From Nitrospirota bacterium (GTDB lineage Bacteria; Nitrospirota; UBA9217): a stretch of 58,460 bases of DNA. A model generated the notes under the pieces. The model was not told the origin of the DNA. It was given only the letters and a program-made list of their open reading frames with translations, and searched no databases. The translations under genes were made by a program, and so were the position numbers. Of the stretch, positions 41,297-52,381 are shown one piece after another; within the stretch, counting starts at the first letter, position 1, and every line of letters starts with the position of its first letter. Location: positions 1 to 58,460 of the forward strand of contig DASPSR010000064.1 of assembly GCA_035623825.1 (NCBI GenBank), read 5' to 3'.

Positions 41297-41548
41297 TTAT
41301 TTTACCTCCTTTTTCTTCTTCGCGGCCTCAATGCCGAGCACGGTCCAGAAGTTGCCTGTGAACGAGCCATGTACGAAAGAAAAGACAAACGCGGTGATGA
41401 TCGGTAGCAGCGCATACATTCCGCCCTTCGCGAATGTGCTGTTTACCAGATCCTGCTTGAGCAGGAGGGCCGAGTAGAACGCTATGGATATGATGCCCAT
41501 AACGATCAACTTTCCCACCGGCTTCTTTTTTGTGGTGCTCTGTGCCAT
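41297..41548 (-). CDS. Small two-TM membrane protein
   Basis: Two hydrophobic segments, FSFVHGSF..NFW..LGIEA; AGGAGG RBS; abuts the tauE gene. Confidence 0.8.
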   Translation of the reverse strand: MAQSTTKKKPVGKLIVMGIISIAFYSALLLKQDLVNSTFAKGGMYALLPIITAFVFSFVHGSFTGNFWTVLGIEAAKKKKEVK

Positions 41549-41643: not shown

Positions 41644-42147
41644 CTATGCCCTGGCCCCGTCCATCACCACGACGAGCGGACATTTCAGTTGCTGCCATAG
41701 TTCAGCAAGCGTTTTATCTCTCTTATTACAATCGGCATCGAGACTGTGGGGGGATTCAATGACGGCGAACAGGATTTCCTTTTCGCTGTTCGTATAGTCG
41801 ATGATCTCTTGCTTTAGACAGCCGGTCCGCGAGATCAGCCGGTATGGGACATTAGCCGCCTTGAGCTCCGATTCGAAATGGTCCAGTACGGGATCGATCC
41901 TGCGCTCCCTCCTGCCGGTCGATGAAACATAGAGAATGTCGAGGTGGGCGCCGATTCTCCTTGCAGTGTTCAAGGCGTATTTCAGCGTCTTGATATCAAT
42001 CTGCCCTTCTTTGAGCGCAAGAAGGACCCCTCTCCCTTCCTGCAGCATTGACTGTGCGGTAACGCCCTCATCTGCTTCCGCGAAAGTCGTTGCCGCCAGG
42101 GCGGTTTCTATACTTTTCATCATTTTCTTCAGTTTGGTCGTTTCCAT
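41644..42147 (-). CDS. Usp-like protein with N-terminal AxxFAE motif
   Basis: TLKYALN.A.RIGA.LDILYV..CPLVVV (Usp alpha/beta pattern); N-terminal ETALAATTFAEADEGVTAQSML. Confidence 0.72.
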   Translation of the reverse strand: METTKLKKMMKSIETALAATTFAEADEGVTAQSMLQEGRGVLLALKEGQIDIKTLKYALNTARRIGAHLDILYVSSTGRRERRIDPVLDHFESELKAANVPYRLISRTGCLKQEIIDYTNSEKEILFAVIESPHSLDADCNKRDKTLAELWQQLKCPLVVVMDGARA

Positions 42148-42215
42148 AGACCCTCTGTAGACTATCCGATATCCACGGGGCATGCGGAATGCCGCGGAAG
42201 ATGTTCTGCAAAATG

Positions 42216-42392
42216 CTAGTCGGCACGCAATTCTTTTCTCGCAGCAGGACGTTTGTAATCCTGGACTGTCGGCCGACCGGTCTTTCTCGGCCGGTCTTCA
42301 TTCATGATCTGGCGAGCCGTCTCAAACTCACCCTCTTCCGCGAACGCAGCTGCCACCATTGCCGTTTCGAATTTCTTTAAGATGTTTTTCAT
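42216..42392 (-). CDS. Unannotated 58-aa protein (AAAFAEEGEFETARQI motif)
   Basis: GAGGAGG RBS, ATG 42392, TAG 42216-42218: MKNILKKFETAMVAAAFAEEGEFETARQIMNEDRPRKTGRPTVQDYKRPAARKELRAD. First gene after a sigma-54 promoter; below the ORF-track cutoff. Confidence 0.8.
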   Translation of the reverse strand: MKNILKKFETAMVAAAFAEEGEFETARQIMNEDRPRKTGRPTVQDYKRPAARKELRAD

Positions 42393-42437
42393 TGCCGTTT
42401 CCTCCTCATTTCTATTTTCTCTTTCTGCAATTCATAT

Positions 42438-42453
42438 TACAACTATCGTGCCA
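42438..42453 (-). promoter_or_regulatory. Sigma-54 (-24/-12) promoter of the small ORF-usp-tauE-usp operon
   Basis: Minus strand TGGCACGATAGTTGTA against consensus TGGCACG-N4-TTGC(A/T); a sigma-54 activator is encoded in the divergent operon. Confidence 0.75.
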
Positions 42454-42528
42454 ACAGGATGATGTCATTTAACTATTTGAAAACATTATATTCTCAAACA
42501 ATTCATAAAATCAGCTCATGGCCCCACT

Positions 42529-42630
42529 GTTTAATTTTGCAATAGTAATGAACTTAACACGTATTACTGGTTGAATTTTAAACCTAATTTTGATTGTTGC
42601 ATAAAAAATAAAATCGTTGTAAAATGCAAC
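42529..42630. promoter_or_regulatory. Candidate enhancer (UAS) palindromes GTTGCA-N3-TGCAAC
   Basis: GTTGTAAAATGCAAC (42616-42630), GTTTAATTTTGCAAT (42529-42543), half-site GTTGCA (42596); 80-180 bp upstream of the sigma-54 promoter. Confidence 0.5.
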
Positions 42631-42654
42631 TATTCTAAAAAATCCCGGTACGCG

Positions 42655-44652
42655 ATGAAATTTTTTAGGAAATCAGATGACCAGCAGCATGAATTCATTA
42701 TTGAAGAACTTCGCCAGAAGGTCTCGTCGGCAAGCATGCCCCCTCCTGTCGCGAAGATCGCCGAACAGGAACTTGACCTTTTAACGAGAATCAGTTTCTC
42801 GTCCGCAGAATATACCATCGGCATTACCTATATCGATTACCTTGTTTCCCTGCCCTGGAATAGAAAAACCGAAGACAATCTCAACATCGTCCGCGCCGAA
42901 CGCATCCTAAATGAAAACCACTACGGTCTGGACAAGATAAAAGAGCGGATTATGGAGCACCTGGCTATCAAAGTGCTCATGATGAACAAAAAGGCCCGCG
43001 TTCTGATCATCGATGACGAAGAGATCGCGAGGAAAAATCTCGCGCACATCCTCACGAAAGAAAATTACGACGTAACCACGGCAGCAGACGGGGGAGGGGC
43101 GCTCAGGGAGCTGGAATCTTCGGAGTTTGATGTGGTCCTGACCGACCTCCGAATGGGGAAAATCGACGGCATGGACATTCTGGATCGGGTCAAGATAAAA
43201 TACCCTGACACCAAGGTGATCATGGTGACAGGCTACGCTACTGTCCCCTCGGCCATCGAAGCCATGCAGAAAGGCGCGTTCCACTATATTGCCAAACCGT
43301 TTAAGCTCGACGAAGTGCGCGACACAGTAAAGAGGGCGGCCGAGAAAAAATCGCTCCGGCCCATGACCAAGGGCTCGGTGCTTTGCTTCTCCGGTCCACC
43401 GGGCACAGGGAAAACGTCGCTCGGGCAATCCATTGCCCGGGCACTCAACAGAAAATTTACGAGAATCGCTCTTGGCGGGCTTAAGGACGAGGCCGATATC
43501 CGCGGACATCGAAGGACTTACGTGGGCGCAAAGCCTGGTAGGGTTATCGAGGAGATCCGGAGAGTGGAATCGGCCAATCCCGTAATCATGCTTGACGAAC
43601 TTGACAAGATCGGGCACGATTTCAAGGGGGACCCGGAATCGGCCCTGCTTGAAGTGCTCGACCCCGAACAGAATCGTTCTTTCGTGGACCACTATCTTGA
43701 CGTCCCGTTCGACCTTTCAAGCGTCATGTTCATCCTCACCGCTAATGTGCTCGACACCATCCCGGCGCCGCTCCGCGACCGTATGGAGGTCATCGAGTTT
43801 GCAGGGTACACGCAGGAGGAAAAGGCGCGTATCGCCATGCGCTTCCTCTGCCCAAAGCAGACCCGCGAAAAAGGCCTCTCCTTGGGCCAGGTCGTCTTCA
43901 CGGAAGAGGCCATAAATAAAATCATCCAGGAGTACACGCATGAGGCCGGCATCCGTAATCTAGAACGGAGGATCGCCACGGTCTGCCGCAAGATCGCCCG
44001 GAAAACGCTCCAGAGCACCGGCGCAGCGGAGGTCCTGACCATAATCCCTGAATCTGTGGAGCGCTACCTCGGAAGAAAAAAGTTCCACTTCGAGGCAATC
44101 GAGGAACAGGACCGGATCGGCGTAGCCACAGGCCTCGTGGTGACCGAGACCGGCGGCGATATCATCTTTGTCGAAGCAGCCAAGATGAAAGGCGACAAAG
44201 AGCTCATCATCACCGGCTCGCTCGGCGATGTGATGAGGGAATCGGCACAGGCGGCGCTCAGCTACGTCAGGAGCAATGCCGAAGCATTCGGGATCCCCGA
44301 TAATTTCTTCGAGCGCCACGACATCCACATCCACGTCCCCTCCGGCGCGATCCAGAAAGACGGCCCATCGGCGGGCATCACTATCCTTATTGCCCTCGCC
44401 TCGCTCCTGACAAAGCGGCCCGCCCGGCGTGACGTCGCCCTGACCGGCGAGATAACACTTACAGGCCGCATCCTCCGTGTCGGCGGAATCCAGGAAAAGA
44501 TCCTCGCGGCCAAACGAGCAAAGGTCAAGACCGTGATCGTGCCCGCACGAAACAAAGACGATGTCGATGATTTAACCGAAGATATGAAAAGAGACATCGA
44601 CATCCAGATCGCCGACACCATTACGGAAGTCGTGAAAGCGGTGCTGATTTAG
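42655..44652 (+). CDS. lon: Lon (LonA-type) ATP-dependent protease lacking the N-domain, with an inserted response-regulator receiver domain
   Basis: LPW..HYGL..KERI.E.LA, then REC (LIIDDE..VLTDLRM..DG..TGY..AKPF), then Walker A GPPGTGKT, GHRRTY, Walker B LDELDK, protease KDGPSAG (Ser) and GGIQEK (Lys). Start placed at ATG 42655. Confidence 0.92.
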   Translation: MKFFRKSDDQQHEFIIEELRQKVSSASMPPPVAKIAEQELDLLTRISFSSAEYTIGITYIDYLVSLPWNRKTEDNLNIVRAERILNENHYGLDKIKERIMEHLAIKVLMMNKKARVLIIDDEEIARKNLAHILTKENYDVTTAADGGGALRELESSEFDVVLTDLRMGKIDGMDILDRVKIKYPDTKVIMVTGYATVPSAIEAMQKGAFHYIAKPFKLDEVRDTVKRAAEKKSLRPMTKGSVLCFSGPPGTGKTSLGQSIARALNRKFTRIALGGLKDEADIRGHRRTYVGAKPGRVIEEIRRVESANPVIMLDELDKIGHDFKGDPESALLEVLDPEQNRSFVDHYLDVPFDLSSVMFILTANVLDTIPAPLRDRMEVIEFAGYTQEEKARIAMRFLCPKQTREKGLSLGQVVFTEEAINKIIQEYTHEAGIRNLERRIATVCRKIARKTLQSTGAAEVLTIIPESVERYLGRKKFHFEAIEEQDRIGVATGLVVTETGGDIIFVEAAKMKGDKELIITGSLGDVMRESAQAALSYVRSNAEAFGIPDNFFERHDIHIHVPSGAIQKDGPSAGITILIALASLLTKRPARRDVALTGEITLTGRILRVGGIQEKILAAKRAKVKTVIVPARNKDDVDDLTEDMKRDIDIQIADTITEVVKAVLI

Positions 44653-44655
44653 CCC

Positions 44656-46200
44656 ATGTTCAACTATAAACCAAGCATACGCCAGAAGATAACGTTCGGT
44701 TACTATGCCATTGTAGCCATGATCATCGGCCTGACCATGTTCACCTATCTTGAACTTCGGTACGTCGAAAAGAAGATCGTGTTCGGTGAGGCTATCTCCG
44801 AATTTTTTGACACAACGCTCGAGATCAGGCGGTTCGAGAAGAACTTCTTTCTCTACGAACAGAGGTCGGACTATAACGAGAACATCACGTATGTGTCCAA
44901 GGCCCAGGACATCATCGATCGCAATATCACGGGGTTTACTGCCGTGGCATCACCCGAACAGATATCGGCGATCCAGGTCAAGCTGAAAGAATACAAGGAT
45001 ATCATGGAGCAATACGCAGAGCTGAACAACCAGAGCGTCGAAAAACGGCCCAACAATGCGGCTCGCAAGACAATGCTCGAAGGCAAGATACGCGCCAACG
45101 GCAAGGACATCATCACAATCGCGGAAGAGATCTCGAAGACAGAGAGAAGGAGCCTTCAGGCGCTCCTCAACAACTCCCAGCGCATCCTCATAACGTCGAT
45201 CGTGCTCATCTCCATTGCGGTGATTGCCCTGGGCCAGGTTCTGTCGCGTATGGTATCGCGACCGCTGAAATCACTGGAAGAGAGCATGGGAGTCATTGCC
45301 GAGGGGAAGTTCGAGCGTGTTGCGATCGACTCGAAGGATCGTGAAATCGTCTCCCTCACGAAGGCCTTCAACAAAATGCTCAAAGAGCTGGAACTGCATG
45401 AACGGCACCTAATCCAGTCCGAGAAGCTCGCGTCACTAGGCACACTCCTGTCCGGCGTGGCGCACGAACTGAACAATCCCCTGTCCAACATCTCTTCGTC
45501 CAACCAGATACTCATGGAAGAGTTCAAGGAAGCGCGTGAGCGACGGCCTTCCGGATCCTGGCCTCTGGACCCCGACTTCTCAGTGGAACTCATGACCCAG
45601 ATCAACGATCAGACGGACCGGGCACGCAATATCGTCCGTTCCCTGCTCGACTTCTCGCGGGACAGGGAGTTCAAGAAGGAGAAGCTGTCGCTGAAAAAGC
45701 TCTTTGAAGAAACTATCCAGTTCGTCAAAGGACAAGTACCGGCGAGAATAGAGATCACATTGGCCGTCGCCAATGACATCATGATCATGGCCGACAAACA
45801 GCGAATTCAACAGGCTTTCCTGAATCTGGTCAAAAACGCCATTGACGCAATCACCACGGACGAGGGGACGATAACCATCAAGGCCGAGAAGCACCGAACG
45901 ATTGACGATATCGAGGACGAAAAGATTGGCATCTACAATTATCTAAAATACCGCGGCAAGTGCACTCTTGAAGAAGACACCGTTGATATCGAGATACGGG
46001 ACAGCGGCTCCGGTATACCTCTCGATATCATTCCAAAGATCTTTGACCCCTTCTTTACGACCAAGGACGTAGGCAAGGGTTCAGGTCTCGGTCTCTTCAT
46101 CGTACACGAGATTATCGAAGAACACGACGGCTGCATCGCCGTGGACAGCGAACCCGGCAAGGGAACGTCTTTTTTGATGCGTTTGCCGGTGAGGGAGTAA
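44656..46200 (+). CDS. Membrane sensor histidine kinase (TM-periplasmic helical sensor-TM-HAMP-HisKA-HATPase)
   Basis: EKLASLG..GVAHELNNPL H-box, NLVKNA N-box, DSGSG, FDPFFTTK, GSGLGL. Confidence 0.95.
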   Translation: MFNYKPSIRQKITFGYYAIVAMIIGLTMFTYLELRYVEKKIVFGEAISEFFDTTLEIRRFEKNFFLYEQRSDYNENITYVSKAQDIIDRNITGFTAVASPEQISAIQVKLKEYKDIMEQYAELNNQSVEKRPNNAARKTMLEGKIRANGKDIITIAEEISKTERRSLQALLNNSQRILITSIVLISIAVIALGQVLSRMVSRPLKSLEESMGVIAEGKFERVAIDSKDREIVSLTKAFNKMLKELELHERHLIQSEKLASLGTLLSGVAHELNNPLSNISSSNQILMEEFKEARERRPSGSWPLDPDFSVELMTQINDQTDRARNIVRSLLDFSRDREFKKEKLSLKKLFEETIQFVKGQVPARIEITLAVANDIMIMADKQRIQQAFLNLVKNAIDAITTDEGTITIKAEKHRTIDDIEDEKIGIYNYLKYRGKCTLEEDTVDIEIRDSGSGIPLDIIPKIFDPFFTTKDVGKGSGLGLFIVHEIIEEHDGCIAVDSEPGKGTSFLMRLPVRE

Positions 46201-46205
46201 AGATC

Positions 46206-47567
46206 GTGCAAGACACCGCAAAAATACTGATCATTGACGACGAGCGGGTCGCTCTCCGGAACCTTGAGCACGTCATGAAAAAGGAAGGGTACGATGTGAC
46301 GGCTACGCAGAGCGGCCCGAACGCGCTCAAGCTGCTCGATGAACAGCAGTTTGATGTGGTGCTTACGGACCTGCGCATGGAAAAGGTCGACGGCATGCAG
46401 ATCCTGCGGAAAAGCCGTGAGTTTTACCCAGATTCCGAAGTGATCATGATAACGGGCTACGCCACGCTCGATTCCGCCGTTGAGACCATGAAGCACGGTG
46501 CGTTCTACTATATTGCAAAGCCTTTTAAGCTTGAAGAGGTGCGCAAGGTCGTGAAGGAGGCTGTGCACAAGGTCAAGCTCAAAACCGAGAACCGGAACCT
46601 GCGGGAACAGCTCGAAAGCTATCAAGGCAGGGTCAAGATCATTACGCAGGACTCGAACATGGAGAAGACTCTCGAAACCTCACGCCAGATCGCGCCGACT
46701 GATTGCAATGTGCTCATCACCGGCGAGAGCGGAACCGGCAAGGAGCTCTTCGCTCGTTTCATCCACGTGAACAGCAAACGCGCTGAGGGCCCCTTCTTCG
46801 CTCTCAACTGCGGCGCCTTTAGCGAGGATCTTCTATCGAATGAACTGTTCGGTCACGAAAAAGGTGCATTTACCGGCGCCAACAGCATGAAGAAGGGGCT
46901 CATCGAAATGGCGTCGGGAGGTACCCTGTTCCTCGACGAGATCACGGAAATGTCGCCGTCCATGCAAGTAAAGCTCCTCCGCGTTATCCAGGAGAGAGAG
47001 GTCCTTCGTGTCGGTGGAACGGAACCGTTGAAGGTAGACGTGCGGTTCGTAGCCGCTACCAACAGGGACATTCATGATTCCATGAAAACCGGCGCCTTCA
47101 GACAGGACCTCTATTTCCGGCTAAACGTGGTCTCGCTCCGCATTCCGCCTCTTTCTGAACGAAAGGACGATATCCCGCTGCTTTCCTTTTATTTCTTGAA
47201 GAAATACGCCTTGCTTATGAAGAAAGAAGTGACCGAAATCACCGAGGACGTGATCGCACTGCTCATGAATTACGACTTCCCGGGGAATGTTCGGGAGCTC
47301 GAGAACATCATCGAACGCGGTGTGGCGCTAACGAATGGGGCCACCATCGAGTCTGGACATCTGCCCGAGGACCTGCGCGAGCTCAGCATCAAGACCTTCA
47401 GGAAGAAGGAGGGCAAGATACCATCGCTCGAGGAACAGGAAATGGCGTATATCCGTTGGGTGCTGAACGAGGTCGGCGGCAACAAGACCCTCGCCGCGCA
47501 GATACTCGGTATCGACCGGGTCTCTCTCTGGAGGAAGCTCAAGAAGTATGGGCTGGAGACTGATTAG
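46206..47567 (+). CDS. NtrC/AtoC-family sigma-54-dependent response regulator
   Basis: REC domain, GESGTGKE, ELFGHEKGAFTGA, LFLDE, FPGNVREL, Fis-type HTH. Confidence 0.96.
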   Translation: MQDTAKILIIDDERVALRNLEHVMKKEGYDVTATQSGPNALKLLDEQQFDVVLTDLRMEKVDGMQILRKSREFYPDSEVIMITGYATLDSAVETMKHGAFYYIAKPFKLEEVRKVVKEAVHKVKLKTENRNLREQLESYQGRVKIITQDSNMEKTLETSRQIAPTDCNVLITGESGTGKELFARFIHVNSKRAEGPFFALNCGAFSEDLLSNELFGHEKGAFTGANSMKKGLIEMASGGTLFLDEITEMSPSMQVKLLRVIQEREVLRVGGTEPLKVDVRFVAATNRDIHDSMKTGAFRQDLYFRLNVVSLRIPPLSERKDDIPLLSFYFLKKYALLMKKEVTEITEDVIALLMNYDFPGNVRELENIIERGVALTNGATIESGHLPEDLRELSIKTFRKKEGKIPSLEEQEMAYIRWVLNEVGGNKTLAAQILGIDRVSLWRKLKKYGLETD

Positions 47568-47643: not shown

Positions 47644-48120
47644 ATGGGTTTTGAAGACTTGATTTATGATCTGCAAAATGGCCTCGGCCTGGTCCGAGTC
47701 AAGGCTGCGTCAGAACTGGGGAAGCTCAAGGACAAAAAAGCTGCAGCAGCGTTGAGAGAGGCGCTGAAAGACCCCAATATGGGAGTCAGGAGCAATGCAG
47801 CTTTCGCGCTTGGAGAACTCGGTTCGAAAGATGCGGTACCCCAGCTCCTTGCGCTCCTGAACGATCCCGAAGAGCGGGTAAGAAAGAGCGCCGTTAAGGC
47901 CCTGGGGATGATTGGTTCACGTGAGTCCGTTGCCTCCTTGATCCATGCACTGAATCACGACGCATCACTTATTGTCCGTAGGAGCGCCATCAGAAGCCTG
48001 GGCCAGATTGGCGGACCCAAGGCGATGCAGGCCGTTGAACGCGCTGCTTCAGACCCCGACATCATCCTTGCCGATATGGCGAAAAAGGCAATGGAGAATC
48101 ACAAAAACCATAGGCGGTAA
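47644..48120 (+). CDS. HEAT/PBS-lyase-repeat protein
   Basis: Repeated L..L.DP...VR..A..ALG.IG units; AGGAGG RBS. Confidence 0.88.
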   Translation: MGFEDLIYDLQNGLGLVRVKAASELGKLKDKKAAAALREALKDPNMGVRSNAAFALGELGSKDAVPQLLALLNDPEERVRKSAVKALGMIGSRESVASLIHALNHDASLIVRRSAIRSLGQIGGPKAMQAVERAASDPDIILADMAKKAMENHKNHRR

Positions 48121-48543
48121 AAACCGTCTTTTACGCATATCAAGCCCGTCAATATTTCATCTTGAAATTGGCCCTCCTTCAGACCGAACTCCGCTTTGAA
48201 AGACCCGGCCCAGTCTACCGGTAGTGACTTCCTTTCTTTTTCCTCCAATCGTCCTGTGTGAATTTCTTGCAGGGATTTCATCTGCAACACTCTTGTTCCC
48301 GTGCAGGACTTTTTTTTAGCAGTCTCGTAAAGATCAGAATAAAATGCAAGTGTGTTTGTTCCGCGAATGTCGGCCACTTTTTATGTTTTGATGCTTGTAC
48401 TTTCTTGCTTCTGCGCACCACAAATTCATTCCGGACTGTTTATAAATAATTCTTATGGCGCGTTATGATGATTTTATGGATTTTGTGCACTGAAACGGGA
48501 ACATTTTTCTTGACATCATCTCTATTATTATATTATAAGAAAA

Positions 48544-48579
48544 AGTGCATAATGAAACGATATAGTTGCAAATTGCAAT
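48544..48579. promoter_or_regulatory. Tandem palindromic sites resembling those at 42529-42630, upstream of the second tauE gene
   Basis: AGTGCATAATGAAAC (48544-48558) and GTTGCAAATTGCAAT (48565-48579), 21 bp apart. Confidence 0.4.
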
Positions 48580-48636
48580 TGAATTTTTCAATAATAATTT
48601 TGGATTGGACTCATACGAGGGAGGAAAGGACAAGAA

Positions 48637-49644
48637 ATGGTAGAGCGTAATTTGAAGGTCTTTTTCATGCTGCTGGTCGTTTTAATCGCGCTGACTGCGG
48701 CTGGTGCAGTGTTTGCTTCGTCCGGTACACATGAAGCGGCGGCACCTGCAGCGGTAGAGACGCCTTTGGCTGCGACTGCGGCAAGACCGGCATCGACAGC
48801 ACCTTGGTGGATCTGGCCGCTGGCATTGTTCATCGTGACGTTTATCCTCGGCATTCTGGCTGTCCTCGGCGGCGTTGGCGGAGGCGTGCTTTTTGTGCCG
48901 ATCGTGGGCGGATTCTTCCCATTCCATATCGATTTCGTGAGAGGCGCGGGCCTGCTCGTGGCGCTTGCGGGCGCGCTTGCTGCCGGCCCTGGTCTCCTCA
49001 AGAGGAACCTCGCCAGCCTTCGCCTCGCTCTTCCCGTCGCACTTATCGCGTCGGCAGCTGCGATCGTCGGCGCGATGATCGGCCTCGCCCTCAAGCCGGA
49101 TGTCGTCAATACGCTCCTCGGCGCGACCATCCTGCTCATCGTGGTCATCATGGCGACGGCGAAGAAGTCCGACTTCCCCGTAGTGCCGAAGCCCGATGCG
49201 CTGTCTCAGAGCCTCGGCATCATGGGCATCTACCGGGAAGAATCGCTCGGCAAGGACGTTGAGTGGAATGTCCACAAAACGCCTCTGGGTCTGACCCTGT
49301 TCATCGTGATCGGCATCATGGCCGGCATGTTCGGTCTCGGCGCCGGCTGGGCGAACGTGCCTGTGCTGAACCTCATGATGGGCGCGCCGCTCAAGATATC
49401 GGTGGCTACGAGCAAGTTCCTGCTCTCGATCACCGACACTTCTGCGGCATGGGTATATCTGAACCAAGGCGCGGTGCTTCCCATGATCGTGGTGCCGTCC
49501 CTCGTGGGCATCATGATCGGATCCATCGTGGGCGTGAAGATACTCGCCAAGGCGAAACCCAAGGCCATCAAATGGATGGTGATTGGCCTCCTGCTCTTCG
49601 CAGGAGCTAGATCCCTGCTCAAGGGACTCGGAGTCTGGAGATAG
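48637..49644 (+). CDS. TauE/SafE (DUF81) family transporter
   Basis: GILAVLGGVGGGVLFVP and GIMAGMFGLGAGWANVP repeats, ATS; multiple TM helices. Confidence 0.9.
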   Translation: MVERNLKVFFMLLVVLIALTAAGAVFASSGTHEAAAPAAVETPLAATAARPASTAPWWIWPLALFIVTFILGILAVLGGVGGGVLFVPIVGGFFPFHIDFVRGAGLLVALAGALAAGPGLLKRNLASLRLALPVALIASAAAIVGAMIGLALKPDVVNTLLGATILLIVVIMATAKKSDFPVVPKPDALSQSLGIMGIYREESLGKDVEWNVHKTPLGLTLFIVIGIMAGMFGLGAGWANVPVLNLMMGAPLKISVATSKFLLSITDTSAAWVYLNQGAVLPMIVVPSLVGIMIGSIVGVKILAKAKPKAIKWMVIGLLLFAGARSLLKGLGVWR

Positions 49645-49655
49645 GGGGAAGAAAA

Positions 49656-50075
49656 ATGATGAACGAAAAAACCAAAGCATCGGAAGAACAGATGGCATAC
49701 GCAAGCGTCCTAAGTATCGGCATGTGGTTCGGTCTAGCCTTGCTTATCATCACGTTTATTGTTTACATATCAGGGGTCATCCCGAGCTTCGTTCCGATCG
49801 ATGATCTGCCGAAATACTGGGGAATGAGGGTCCACGATTTCAACCATACTCTCAACGCACCTACTGGCTGGCAATGGGCTGCACTGGTCGGAAAGGGCGA
49901 CTACCTCAATTTTGTAGGTATCGCGATCTTGTCGGGACTCACGATACTGTGCTACCTAGTGCTCCTGCCGATCCTGTTTAGGAAGAAGGATACGGCGTAC
50001 GTCGTTATTGCCATCGTGGAAGTGCTGGTGCTGTCTTTGGCGGCAAGCGGTCTCTTGAAAGCAGGCGGCCACTAA
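49656..50075 (+). CDS. Small membrane protein, TauE partner (DUF1634-like)
   Basis: Three hydrophobic segments, EV.VL.LAASG..GGH end; directly after tauE. Confidence 0.75.
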   Translation: MMNEKTKASEEQMAYASVLSIGMWFGLALLIITFIVYISGVIPSFVPIDDLPKYWGMRVHDFNHTLNAPTGWQWAALVGKGDYLNFVGIAILSGLTILCYLVLLPILFRKKDTAYVVIAIVEVLVLSLAASGLLKAGGH

Positions 50076-50447: not shown

Positions 50448-50590
50448 ATGAACTACCCGCCACTATATTTATGCTGCGATTATAGTGGGGGTTTCACGGT
50501 TCAAAGAAGCTTGCAGCATAGCGGTTTCCCCGATATGCCGTCTTATGTGCCTCTCCCCGCGCATAACATCGGGCAGTCCCTGCCCTAGTG
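50448..50590 (-). ncRNA. Putative TnpB omegaRNA (reRNA) scaffold overlapping the tnpB 3' end
   Basis: Expected position for IS605 reRNA; hairpins GGGCAG-GGA-CTGCCC and CCACTATA..TATAGTGG. The 5' boundary is approximate. Confidence 0.6.
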
Positions 50591-51914
50591 GTGCCTTTTT
50601 CTTCAGCCTCATGGCCCTTTTCTTCGCCTTTACGGTAAATTCTCCGGCAATCAGTTTTGCGATCCCGCGTGATTTTATGACGCGGGCTGCGTTGATGTCG
50701 GCATTCTCCGTAAATCCGCAGCTCGTGCATTCGAACCCTGCCTGTGACAGGCGATTGTCCGGGTGAGTGTGCCCGCACCGGGAACACTCCTGCGATGTGC
50801 CATGTGGCGGTATCGACAGTACCAGTTTGTTGAGTCTTTGCGCTTTATAATTCGTGAATAGTTTTACTTTGCCCCACGCCGAATCAAGGATTGCTTTGCT
50901 CAAACCAGCCTTTGCCGCGGCGCCGTTCGGGAGATAGCCGCCATGGCCGTTTGGTTTCGGCTTCGGTTTTGCGGTCATGCCCTTTATGTTAAGGTCCTCG
51001 AAGAAGATCACCTCACAGCTCCCGTCCACGATCTTCCTGCTGGCCTGATGCGCGAAGTTCTTGCGGACGTTCATCGCGTACTCACTGCTCTTATGAGCTT
51101 CCCGGAGCGACCTCTTCCAGTTACCCGATCCTTTTGTTCTTCTGGCCATCTGCCTCTGGTATCTCTTCCTCCGGCGATCCTTTCTCGCCATTCGGAAGAG
51201 TTCGACCTTCTTGAATCCGTGGGTATCCCCGGTGCTTTCGGCAACAGGGATATACAATCCCCTGTCAAGTCCCACACTGACCTGCTCGAGTTCTTGCTTC
51301 CCCATGTGGCTGTACAGGTCTATCAGGACCTCTTTGGCCATTTCAGAGCCGGCCTTCTCAAAGGAGAAAGACACGTACCACTTGCCGCTATCCCGGGAGA
51401 CCGTTATAGTTGACGGGAGGTTGTACTCCACATGAGCTTTAAACCTTAGTTCTCCAAGGCCATGGCTCTTCGTCCTGAGCATCAATTTATGACCATAGAT
51501 GATTTTGCCGTTTCGCTTTCTCGTTCTCCCCGTTGGTTCAAACCTGAACAGCTCAGAGGTGAGCCATACGGTTTGTCGCCCCCTGTTTTTCCTGAACACC
51601 GGCCGGCTCGCCAACCCGGAGATAAACCGCTTGTACGCCATCATGAACCGGGTTGCCCCGTTCCTCAGAACCTGAGACGGCACTTCGAAGAGATGCGGGG
51701 TGAGGCTCCTGTCCTTGAAGTGCGAGTACTGCTGGTCAAAGGGGATATCTATCCCGGTGAGGGAAAGAGCCTTGTCCCTGAATTTCCTGAAGTAGCGCTC
51801 TTCGCCAACTTTCGCGTTGTAAATATACCGTTGGCAGTTCATCCAGAAAGTGAGGCTTCTCGCCTGCTCCTCGGTCGGGTAGCATCTGAATTTTACTCCG
51901 CTTGACAGCGCCAT
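50469..51914 (-). CDS. tnpB: RNA-guided endonuclease TnpB
   Basis: KFRCYPT HTH start, RuvC-I GLDRG, RuvC-II FEDL, zinc finger CSRC..CTSC, RuvC-III ADINAA; catalytic D-E-D intact. Start placed at ATG 51914. Confidence 0.95.
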   Translation of the reverse strand: MALSSGVKFRCYPTEEQARSLTFWMNCQRYIYNAKVGEERYFRKFRDKALSLTGIDIPFDQQYSHFKDRSLTPHLFEVPSQVLRNGATRFMMAYKRFISGLASRPVFRKNRGRQTVWLTSELFRFEPTGRTRKRNGKIIYGHKLMLRTKSHGLGELRFKAHVEYNLPSTITVSRDSGKWYVSFSFEKAGSEMAKEVLIDLYSHMGKQELEQVSVGLDRGLYIPVAESTGDTHGFKKVELFRMARKDRRRKRYQRQMARRTKGSGNWKRSLREAHKSSEYAMNVRKNFAHQASRKIVDGSCEVIFFEDLNIKGMTAKPKPKPNGHGGYLPNGAAAKAGLSKAILDSAWGKVKLFTNYKAQRLNKLVLSIPPHGTSQECSRCGHTHPDNRLSQAGFECTSCGFTENADINAARVIKSRGIAKLIAGEFTVKAKKRAMRLKKKAPLGQGLPDVMRGERHIRRHIGETAMLQASLNRETPTIIAA

Positions 51915-51937
51915 GATTCTATTGTATCTTAGGTCGC

Positions 51938-52381
51938 ATGGAAAATCAACCAAATAAATCATTGTCTCATGCGGTATATTTGATTAGGCTGCATATCGTA
52001 TTCGTCACAAAATACCGGAGAAAAGTTTTAAATGCCGAGATGCTTGCCTTCCTGAGGTCGGCATTTGCCGGCATACTCTCCGATTGGAGATGCGGCCTTA
52101 TTGAGTTCGGGGGCGAGGAGGACCATGTGCATATGCTGATCGATATCCATCCCGCGCTCAACATTTCGACACTTATCAACAATCTTAAATCAGCGAGTTC
52201 CAAACGTTTGCGCCGACAGTTTGCGGAACACATCAAGATGTTCTACTCTAAACCCGTCTTCTGGCACAGGGCCTACTATGTGGGAAGCGTCGGCAATGTT
52301 TCGCTGGAAGTCGTTCGCGACTACATCGACCGGCAGGGATCACCGGACAGACCCAGAAAGAAATCCAACCAATCCGCTTGA
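51938..52381 (+). CDS. tnpA: IS200/IS605 Y1 (HUH) transposase TnpA
   Basis: HIVFVTKYRR, EEDHVH (HUH), FW...YY.GSVG, catalytic Y-I-x-x-Q (YIDRQ). Confidence 0.95.
   Translation: MENQPNKSLSHAVYLIRLHIVFVTKYRRKVLNAEMLAFLRSAFAGILSDWRCGLIEFGGEEDHVHMLIDIHPALNISTLINNLKSASSKRLRRQFAEHIKMFYSKPVFWHRAYYVGSVGNVSLEVVRDYIDRQGSPDRPRKKSNQSA

Follow-up and report, generated by a model that had tools for sequence, protein, structure and literature searches.

The genes DVU3303-3305 of Desulfovibrio vulgaris have been named a 'three-component system'; besides a histidine kinase, they encode two response regulators, one with a Lon protease as its output and one of the sigma-54 type. The same paper proposes that the Lon response regulator needs phosphorylation for its activity (Rajeev et al. 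2011, PMC3333781). Here we describe a locus of the same type on contig DASPSR010000064.1 of a Nitrospirota bacterium (GTDB lineage UBA9217, assembly GCA_035623825.1). The stretch of DNA analysed, hereafter the window, comprises 58,460 nucleotides (positions 1 to 58,460 of the forward strand). Within it, three plus-strand genes encode a LonA-type ATP-dependent protease with an inserted receiver (REC) domain, which we call REC-Lon, a sensor histidine kinase and an NtrC-type sigma-54 activator (Table 1).

DVU3305 is reported to bind its own operon and DVU3302-3298 in D. vulgaris, as detected by DNA-affinity-purified chip (DAP-chip) analysis, and orthologues with a linked Lon are listed for other Desulfovibrio, Desulfomicrobium baculatum, Desulfohalobium retbaense, the Nitrospirota species Thermodesulfovibrio yellowstonii, Thioalkalivibrio and Dechloromonas aromatica (Rajeev et al., PMC3333781). 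The regulon is also listed in Kazakov et al. (2015, PMC4641369). Trotter et al. (2023, PMC10102598) give a pairwise cofitness above 0.9 for DVU3303:3305 and describe the genes as detrimental in chlorate, with the target anion transporter DVU3299 being needed. As in the window, the D. vulgaris genes are accompanied by a divergent target operon encoding membrane, hypothetical and UspA proteins together with a putative anion transporter. Homology was judged on the protein of Nitratidesulfovibrio liaohensis, standing in for DVU3303 itself; REC-Lon is 46% identical to it over 670 columns, the alignment is collinear, and the receiver occupies the same place in both. The two systems differ in that the host of the window belongs to another phylum, and in that its activator carries GAFTGA, seen in the translation, in place of the GAFSGA given in the published entries for the Desulfovibrio system. 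We assign the locus to the DVU3303-3305 type of module as a new, well-preserved member. The idea that one kinase serves two outputs is not new, having stood in print since 2011 as a hypothesis (Rajeev et al. 2011, PMC3333781). What the window contributes is not a discovery; it offers a clean annotation and sharper predictions of where the receiver is inserted, which alpha-1 code the two receivers share, which promoter and boxes serve the divergent operon, and which small proteins are candidate partners.

The module can also be compared with better known machines. Like the NtrC-family activators NtrC, NtrC1 and DctD, REC-Lon has a receiver of the same subfamily placed directly N-terminal to an AAA+ P-loop domain. 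Unlike them, its AAA+ domain is a Lon unfoldase joined to a protease and not a sigma-54 remodeller, and its receiver is internal, following the first AAA+ helix, instead of N-terminal. In the NtrC family, receivers gate the assembly of the ring. Response regulators also act as proteolysis adaptors, RssB with ClpXP in Escherichia coli and CpdR with ClpXP in Caulobacter. REC-Lon would resemble these systems in putting an AAA+ protease under the control of two-component phosphorylation, but RssB and CpdR are separate adaptors that deliver or prime substrates, whereas the receiver of REC-Lon lies within the protease polypeptide.

Architecture of REC-Lon

The reading frame of lon opens with a TTG codon at 42571. 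We chose the ATG at 42655 as the start, which yields a protein of 665 amino acids (aa), because homologues of 664-669 aa start with MKFF. A Pfam search of this protein matched Response_reg (residues 116-225; 6e-30, with 104 bits against a cut-off of 30.2), AAA (243-383), Lon_lid (405-455) and Lon_C (PF05362, 464-664; 5e-82), and did not match LON_substr_bdg (PF02190). Among NCBIfam models, TIGR00763 ('endopeptidase La') exceeded its cut-off of 608 with a score of 729 bits, the match falling into two stretches with the receiver between them, and the RssB and CpdR models were weaker matches of the receiver itself. The closest solved relative of this receiver is that of NtrC1 (1zy2, E 7.8e-21).

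The insertion was located by comparison with ordinary Lon proteases. The same genome encodes two LonA enzymes (819 and 803 aa), both with LON_substr_bdg, to which REC-Lon is 53-55% identical in the AAA+ module, lid and S16 protease domain. Relative to them, REC-Lon is missing about 270 N-terminal residues and retains a helical segment of about 100 residues that ends in HYGL..KERI..HLA; about 125 extra residues then precede the strand that leads to GPPGTGKT. When REC-Lon is aligned with the solved Lon 7p6u, residues 15-114 of the query correspond to chain residues 250-349 and residues 241-664 to chain residues 354-775, so that about 126 residues (the receiver and very short linkers) replace a link of about 4 residues in ordinary Lon. 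This puts the receiver between the adenine-side helix (HYGL..KERI) and strand 1 with Walker A, as a rigid insertion beside the nucleotide-binding strand. Both alignments place the insertion identically. By the usual domain boundaries of E. coli Lon, which we take to count the HYGL helix in the AAA+ module, 'inserted into the AAA+ module' is therefore fair wording.

Apart from the lost N-terminal part and the receiver, REC-Lon matches canonical LonA (TIGR00763; solved structures 7p6u, 3m6a and 6on2) in its AAA+ module, lid and S16 protease domain, and the Walker motifs, the pore loop and the Ser-Lys dyad are intact. As judged from its sequence, REC-Lon is a genuine LonA-type protease with a complete set of catalytic residues and a receiver in its motor. 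The genome keeps two ordinary LonA enzymes, and REC-Lon is an accessory, third enzyme of this type. The genome also encodes an 815-aa protein resembling LonC and LonB (LonC_helical, AAA_32, LonB lid and partial Lon_C; contig C13), which brings the Lon-type genes to four, and a further Lon_C match lies in a 461-aa frame (contig C43). The first-pass annotation of this DNA, made from the letters alone, had described a Lon without its substrate-binding domain, a complete receiver between the HYGL..KERI helix and Walker A, and intact phosphoacceptor, Walker, pore-loop and Ser-Lys residues; the domain searches, the two alignments and the family comparison that follows bear out each of these observations.

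Conservation and spread of the fusion

The residues expected of a working receiver and a working protease are retained throughout the family. In an alignment of 115 full-length sequences, consisting of REC-Lon and those 114 relatives of at least 655 aa among 125 listed, D120, D121, D164 (of VLTD), T192, K214, K253, Y289 (of the pore loop), D314, E315, N364, R376 and R434 (sensor and arginine residues), S572 and K615 are invariant (115/115). A 54-sequence alignment covering two lineages adds Y211, the aromatic switch residue, and I124, A125 and N128 of helix alpha-1 to the invariant positions.

Three protein searches delineate the family. The best 120 clusters found with the window protein are 72-93% identical to it and about 665 aa long; PF00072 is present in all of them and Lon_C is listed in 119, and those that carry a name are called 'endopeptidase La' and derive mostly from metagenome-assembled genomes of Nitrospirota. 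A second search, with a query (P0125) that is 52% identical to the window protein, retrieved a clade whose names include Desulfobulbus propionicus DSM 2032 ('response regulator receiver protein'), Desulfobulbaceae and Desulforhopalus, with PF00072 in all of the best 120 matches and Lon_C listed in 117. The third search, with a query from metagenome locus L101, led to Desulfovibrionales, among them Nitratidesulfovibrio species and a 'response regulator receiver modulated ATP dependent protease [Desulfovibrio sp. X2]'; again all of the best 120 matches have PF00072, and Lon_C is listed in 116.

We also searched genomes with a junction query (residues 60-300, 241 residues). Full matches were found in about 63 of 401 sampled Nitrospirota genomes, spread over several families, and in about 35 of the 64 genomes of the window's own family. 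A search aimed at the Dechloromonas orthologues listed by Rajeev et al. did not detect the junction in 301 genomes of the order around an Azovibrio genome at E <= 1e-55, a threshold that was probably too strict, nor in 201 genomes of the family of an Azovibrio genome at E <= 1e-35, and neither result says anything of absence. An assembly chimera, the artefact that the first-pass annotation had named as capable of overturning its reading, is rejected, given that the same fusion is conserved across relatives in Nitrospirota, Desulfobulbales and Desulfovibrionales. The REC-Lon fusion forms a large family in these three lineages.

Other searches returned related but distinct proteins. Few REC-Lon representatives appear among the top 150 matches of a search against 50%-cluster representatives, and the long multi-stretch matches in that search proved to be Lon proteases with tandem AAA modules and without a receiver, not REC-Lon. 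These enzymes of 889-1379 aa (P0124, P0126, P0128, P0130-P0134 and P0137) have two or three tandem Lon-type AAA+/lid modules ahead of a single Lon_C. The same representatives include a match of 3865 aa (P0143). A short relative (P0498, 391 aa, on a contig of 139,763 bp) comprises the receiver and the AAA part without Lon_C, and one Nitrospirota genome (G349) has a second copy of the junction, 46% identical, in a 382-aa open frame (C11:7409-8119).

Linkage, sister receivers and the proposed circuit

The gaps between lon and the kinase gene and between the kinase and activator genes are 3 and 5 nucleotides, respectively, in agreement with the 3-5 bp of the initial description. The kinase has a domain of about 145 aa on the outside, of no known family, between two hydrophobic segments that were read by eye and ahead of HAMP; rpoN is present in the genome.

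This linkage recurs in relatives. Orthologous kinase and activator genes adjoin the REC-Lon gene in 15 of 26 Nitrospirota loci (11 with the pair downstream and 4, of a Nitrospira type, with the pair divergently upstream). In two more loci the pair lies about 4-5.5 kb away, past the TauE/Usp operon. Of the others, one has the activator only, one has the kinase followed by the end of the contig, two end right after lon and one is fragmentary. Among 37 Desulfobulbus- or Desulfovibrio-like metagenome loci, both partners are found in 26, where they mostly lie downstream on the other strand (convergent), and three loci of type L100 share the gene order of the window. Two of the 37 are cut after one partner and nine have neither, eight of which end within 1.5 kb of lon at the edge of a contig. 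The gene set is kept through three gene orders, and such linkage argues for a functional unit more strongly than an unvarying operon could. Similar neighbourhoods in sulfate reducers had only been suspected in the first-pass annotation; the survey of synteny that it had suggested places them in the Desulfobulbus- and Desulfovibrio-like loci.

The two receivers of the locus are closely related. The receiver of REC-Lon and that of the activator, whose striking similarity had been noted at the outset, are 58% identical over 122 aa (E 9e-44), and neither has a better match among the 53 REC segments in the genome, the next best reaching 46%. Receiver phylogenies were quick maximum likelihood (ML) trees built with IQ-TREE, with support given only by the Shimodaira-Hasegawa-like approximate likelihood ratio test (SH-aLRT). 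In such a tree the Lon receivers (25) and the activator receivers (19) fall on separate sides with SH-aLRT values of 88 and 95, and jointly they make up a clade (SH-aLRT 91) to which none of 24 other receivers belongs. When ten loci of other lineages were added, the 36 receivers of the modules again formed a clade (SH-aLRT 91) against 11 others. This larger tree does not fix the branching order among the four receiver groups, and consequently we make no claim that the fusion arose once. The trees identify the likeness of the two receivers as an old duplication, and recent gene conversion is rejected because receivers do not group by genome.

Specificity for the kinase was approached through helix alpha-1. 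Spo0F positions 14, 15, 18, 21 and 22, which we take to be the main alpha-1 positions of kinase contact and specificity, read IANHI in the Lon receiver and VANHV in the activator receiver, and the next best of the 53 receivers has two of the five positions in common. The signature DDE.IA[RL].N[LM].H is common to Lon and activator receivers in most loci of both sets, and it was not seen in those unrelated receivers of these loci whose alpha-1 was read. A shared alpha-1 signature in sister receivers fits a single kinase for both, as far as such residues foretell partnership.

We consider it probable that the kinase phosphorylates the two sister receivers, that the activator then induces the divergent operon, and that phosphorylation of D164 switches proteolysis by REC-Lon. 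According to this proposal the membrane kinase, with its sensor domain on the outside, would phosphorylate both receivers. The activator would bind boxes of the TTGCA-N3-TGCAA type in the 262-bp intergenic region and fire the divergent sigma-54 promoter, which would drive an operon of a small protein, a Usp-like protein, a membrane protein, a TauE permease and a tandem Usp. Phosphorylation of D164 would most likely alter the ATPase activity of REC-Lon, its competence to form hexamers, or both, and in this way could switch the proteolysis of a set of substrates in step with induction of the TauE/Usp operon. The first-pass annotation had likewise assigned two outputs to one kinase, sigma-54 transcription and phosphorylation-gated proteolysis. 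That reading is partly supported by the sequences: operon structure, linkage, sister receivers and intact residues all agree with it, while phosphotransfer to Lon and the gating of proteolysis are steps that we infer.

The sign of the switch is a matter of analogy. Activation of REC-Lon by phosphorylation seems more likely than inhibition, a preference that we hold with low certainty, because receiver control of the AAA+ ring in NtrC-family activators is analogous. More specifically, phospho-D164 might act as an NtrC-like licence for hexamer formation or ATP turnover in a Lon that has no N-domain, the substrates being the activator or the proteins with the A-x-A-F-A-E-x-G motif described below; we put this forward as a tentative idea that is more likely wrong than right. 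The opposite sign, by which REC-Lon is active when unphosphorylated and the signal stabilizes the proteins it would degrade as the activator induces the divergent operon, we regard as unlikely. Nothing in the sequence fixes the sign of regulation, the closest solved receiver is that of NtrC1, and in the NtrC family some receivers control the AAA+ ring positively and others negatively. However, inhibition in NtrC1 and DctD comes from the receiver in its unphosphorylated state, and this speaks for activation by phosphorylation. Furthermore, in D. vulgaris, mutants of lon, kinase and activator are alike, a result that is easier to explain if all three act in one direction, although polarity could produce it likewise.

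The presence of two receivers with the same alpha-1 signature beside one kinase would also be expected if the chief role of the Lon receiver were to act as a phosphate sink or competitor and so to tune how far the activator is phosphorylated, with proteolysis constitutive and ungated, and such sinks are known in chemotaxis. Yet a sink needs neither a full AAA+ protease, every catalytic residue of which is invariant in 115 of 115 sequences, nor the same tight insertion point, which is conserved across three lineages, and we judge this explanation quite improbable. Service of the Lon receiver by a kinase other than the adjacent one, whether cross-wired or orphan, appears very improbable; it would accommodate the minority of loci that have REC-Lon but no nearby pair (L018, L019, L022, L029 and L084), but linkage survives three gene orders, and among the 53 receivers of the genome the alpha-1 signature is common only to that of the activator. 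Although loss of the substrate-binding N-domain means that the choice of substrates needs something in its place, an unphosphorylated pseudo-receiver that replaces this domain in docking or oligomerization is highly improbable, for such receivers usually lose pocket residues, whereas D120, D121, D164, T192 and K214 are invariant in the 115 sequences and Y211 in the 54.

Several points weigh against the proposal that one kinase drives both transcription and gated proteolysis. Four of the 26 Nitrospirota loci (L018, L019, L022 and L029) have no kinase or activator within about 6 kb of REC-Lon, metagenome locus L084 has no such pair within a similar distance although there is room for both, and alpha-1 of the Lon receiver is slightly diverged in loci without a nearby pair. 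The promoter of lon itself was not recognized, and no sigma-70-like promoter or terminator was seen in 42150-42750. An AlphaFold2 model built from the 54-sequence alignment has good individual domains (mean predicted local distance difference test score, pLDDT, 72.7; predicted template modelling score, pTM, 0.53; linkers below pLDDT 50) and gives no confident placement of the receiver relative to the AAA+ domain. The literature searched, which left most subscription journals outside, yielded no biochemical or structural study of a REC-Lon. Finally, the word 'polar' is absent from the main text of Trotter et al. (2023, PMC10102598), and cofitness within one operon may therefore partly reflect polarity.

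If the tentative NtrC-like licence exists and REC-Lon degrades products of its own module, the circuit would be self-contained, with one kinase both inducing a stress response and timing its removal, and this would be the first case in which a two-component system acts on an AAA+ protease directly and in cis, not via adaptors. To our knowledge, two-component regulated proteolysis is so far known via separate adaptors such as RssB and CpdR. Through a receiver built into the protease, a membrane sensor could act directly on protein degradation, and REC-Lon would be a natural example of an NtrC-type switch moved to another AAA+ machine. With many members in sulfur-cycling anaerobes and Nitrospirota, one of them in the genetically tractable D. 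vulgaris, the family makes the question testable now.

Divergent operon, regulatory DNA and flanking genes

A five-gene operon on the opposite strand begins 262 bp upstream of lon (Table 1). TauE is present in 29 of the 37 metagenome loci and, at identities of at least 79%, in 13 of the 26 Nitrospirota loci. The 58-aa protein and the N-terminus of the 179-aa protein have in common the motif E-T-A-x-x-A-x-x-F-A-E-x-x-E/G (A-x-A-F-A-E-x-G), and both proteins recur, motif included, in the Desulfovibrionales-like locus L101 (5568-5744 and 5013-5540, both on the minus strand). It may be speculated that these two motif proteins are partners or substrates of the module.

Table 1. Features of the REC-Lon module and of the divergent operon, in coordinates of the window
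Feature	Position	Strand	Basis
REC-Lon, 665-aa LonA-type ATP-dependent protease with inserted receiver, without N-terminal substrate-binding domain	42655..44652	+	Pfam, NCBIfam, alignments
Retained helical pre-AAA segment of LonA, residues 1-111, HYGL..KERI..HLA helix at its end	42655..42987	+	alignments, 7p6u
Receiver (REC), residues 112-236, with D120, D121, D164, T192, Y211 and K214	42988..43362	+	Pfam, alignment
AAA+ large subdomain and Lon lid, residues 237-460 (Walker A K253, Walker B D314/E315, pore loop GHRRTY, N364, R376, R434)	43363..44034	+	Pfam, alignment
Lon_C protease domain, residues 461-665, S572-K615 dyad	44035..44652	+	Pfam, alignment
Sensor histidine kinase, 514 aa: HAMP, HisKA, HATPase_c	44656..46200	+	Pfam, NCBIfam
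NtrC/AtoC-type sigma-54 activator, 453 aa, GTG start: REC, Sigma54_activat, HTH_8	46206..47567	+	Pfam, NCBIfam
58-aa protein, first gene of divergent operon, GGAGG ribosome-binding site, no Pfam family	42216..42392	-	
179-aa protein, no Pfam family, C-terminal part Usp-like by eye	41644..42183	-	
83-aa hydrophobic, probably membrane, protein; kept beside TauE in all three lineages	41297..41548	-	
TauE/SafE-family anion permease, 360 aa	40213..41295	-	
Tandem universal stress protein, 291 aa	39372..40247	-	
Sigma-54-type promoter of divergent operon, TGGCACGATAGTTGTA, perfect -24, TTGT instead of TTGC at -12	42438..42453	-	by eye and conservation
Conserved box TGTTTAATTTTGCAAT / TGTTTnAnnnTGCAAT, candidate activator site, about 85 bp upstream of sigma-54 promoter	42528..42543	.	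14-region alignment
Conserved boxes TGTTGCAT and imperfect palindrome GTTGTAAAATGCAAC, candidate activator sites, about 170 bp upstream of sigma-54 promoter, 25 bp before lon start	42595..42630	.	

A scan of the intergenic region with the sigma-54 consensus, demanding GC at -12, returned no site; TGGCACGATAGTTGTA was found by eye and confirmed by a footprinting alignment. All of 14 aligned intergenic regions of Nitrospirota have the -24 element TGGCA[C/T], in 13 of them as TGGCAC, and 12 have TTG at -12. The C of the GC at -12 is replaced by T or A (TTGTA or TTGAA), which is kept in Nitrospirota, and TTGAT or TTGAA is found in Desulfobulbus-like loci. The same alignment resolved the segment nearest lon into two conserved blocks, TGTTGCA (42595-42602) and GTTGnAnnATGCAAC (42616-42630).

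Of 11 sigma-54-like promoters in the 3.24-Mb genome, only that of the divergent operon has a TTG[CT]A-N3-5-T[GA]CAA box within 260 bp upstream. In the other lineages, the region upstream of lon contains a sigma-54-like site on the minus strand in 19 of 35 loci and on the plus strand in none of the 35, and TTGCA-N3-TGCAA occurs in 21 of 35. Judging from this conservation, the palindromic boxes are likely binding sites of the activator.

Downstream of the activator, 47644-50075 of the plus strand encode three proteins: one of 158 aa with HEAT repeats, a second TauE permease of 335 aa, and one of 139 aa with a weak match to DUF1634, below the Pfam cut-off. In one relative (L007) the HEAT gene likewise comes after the activator, and in another (L025) the TauE/DUF1634 pair lies close to the module. 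A 497-aa TnpB/Cas12f-like protein (OrfB_IS605, Cas12f1-like TNB and HTH_OrfB_IS605) is encoded 2.9 kb downstream of the module on the minus strand (50469-51962). The G+C content is 38-49% in the first 24 kb or so of the window and 50-55% elsewhere, and this initial part may be foreign or island DNA.

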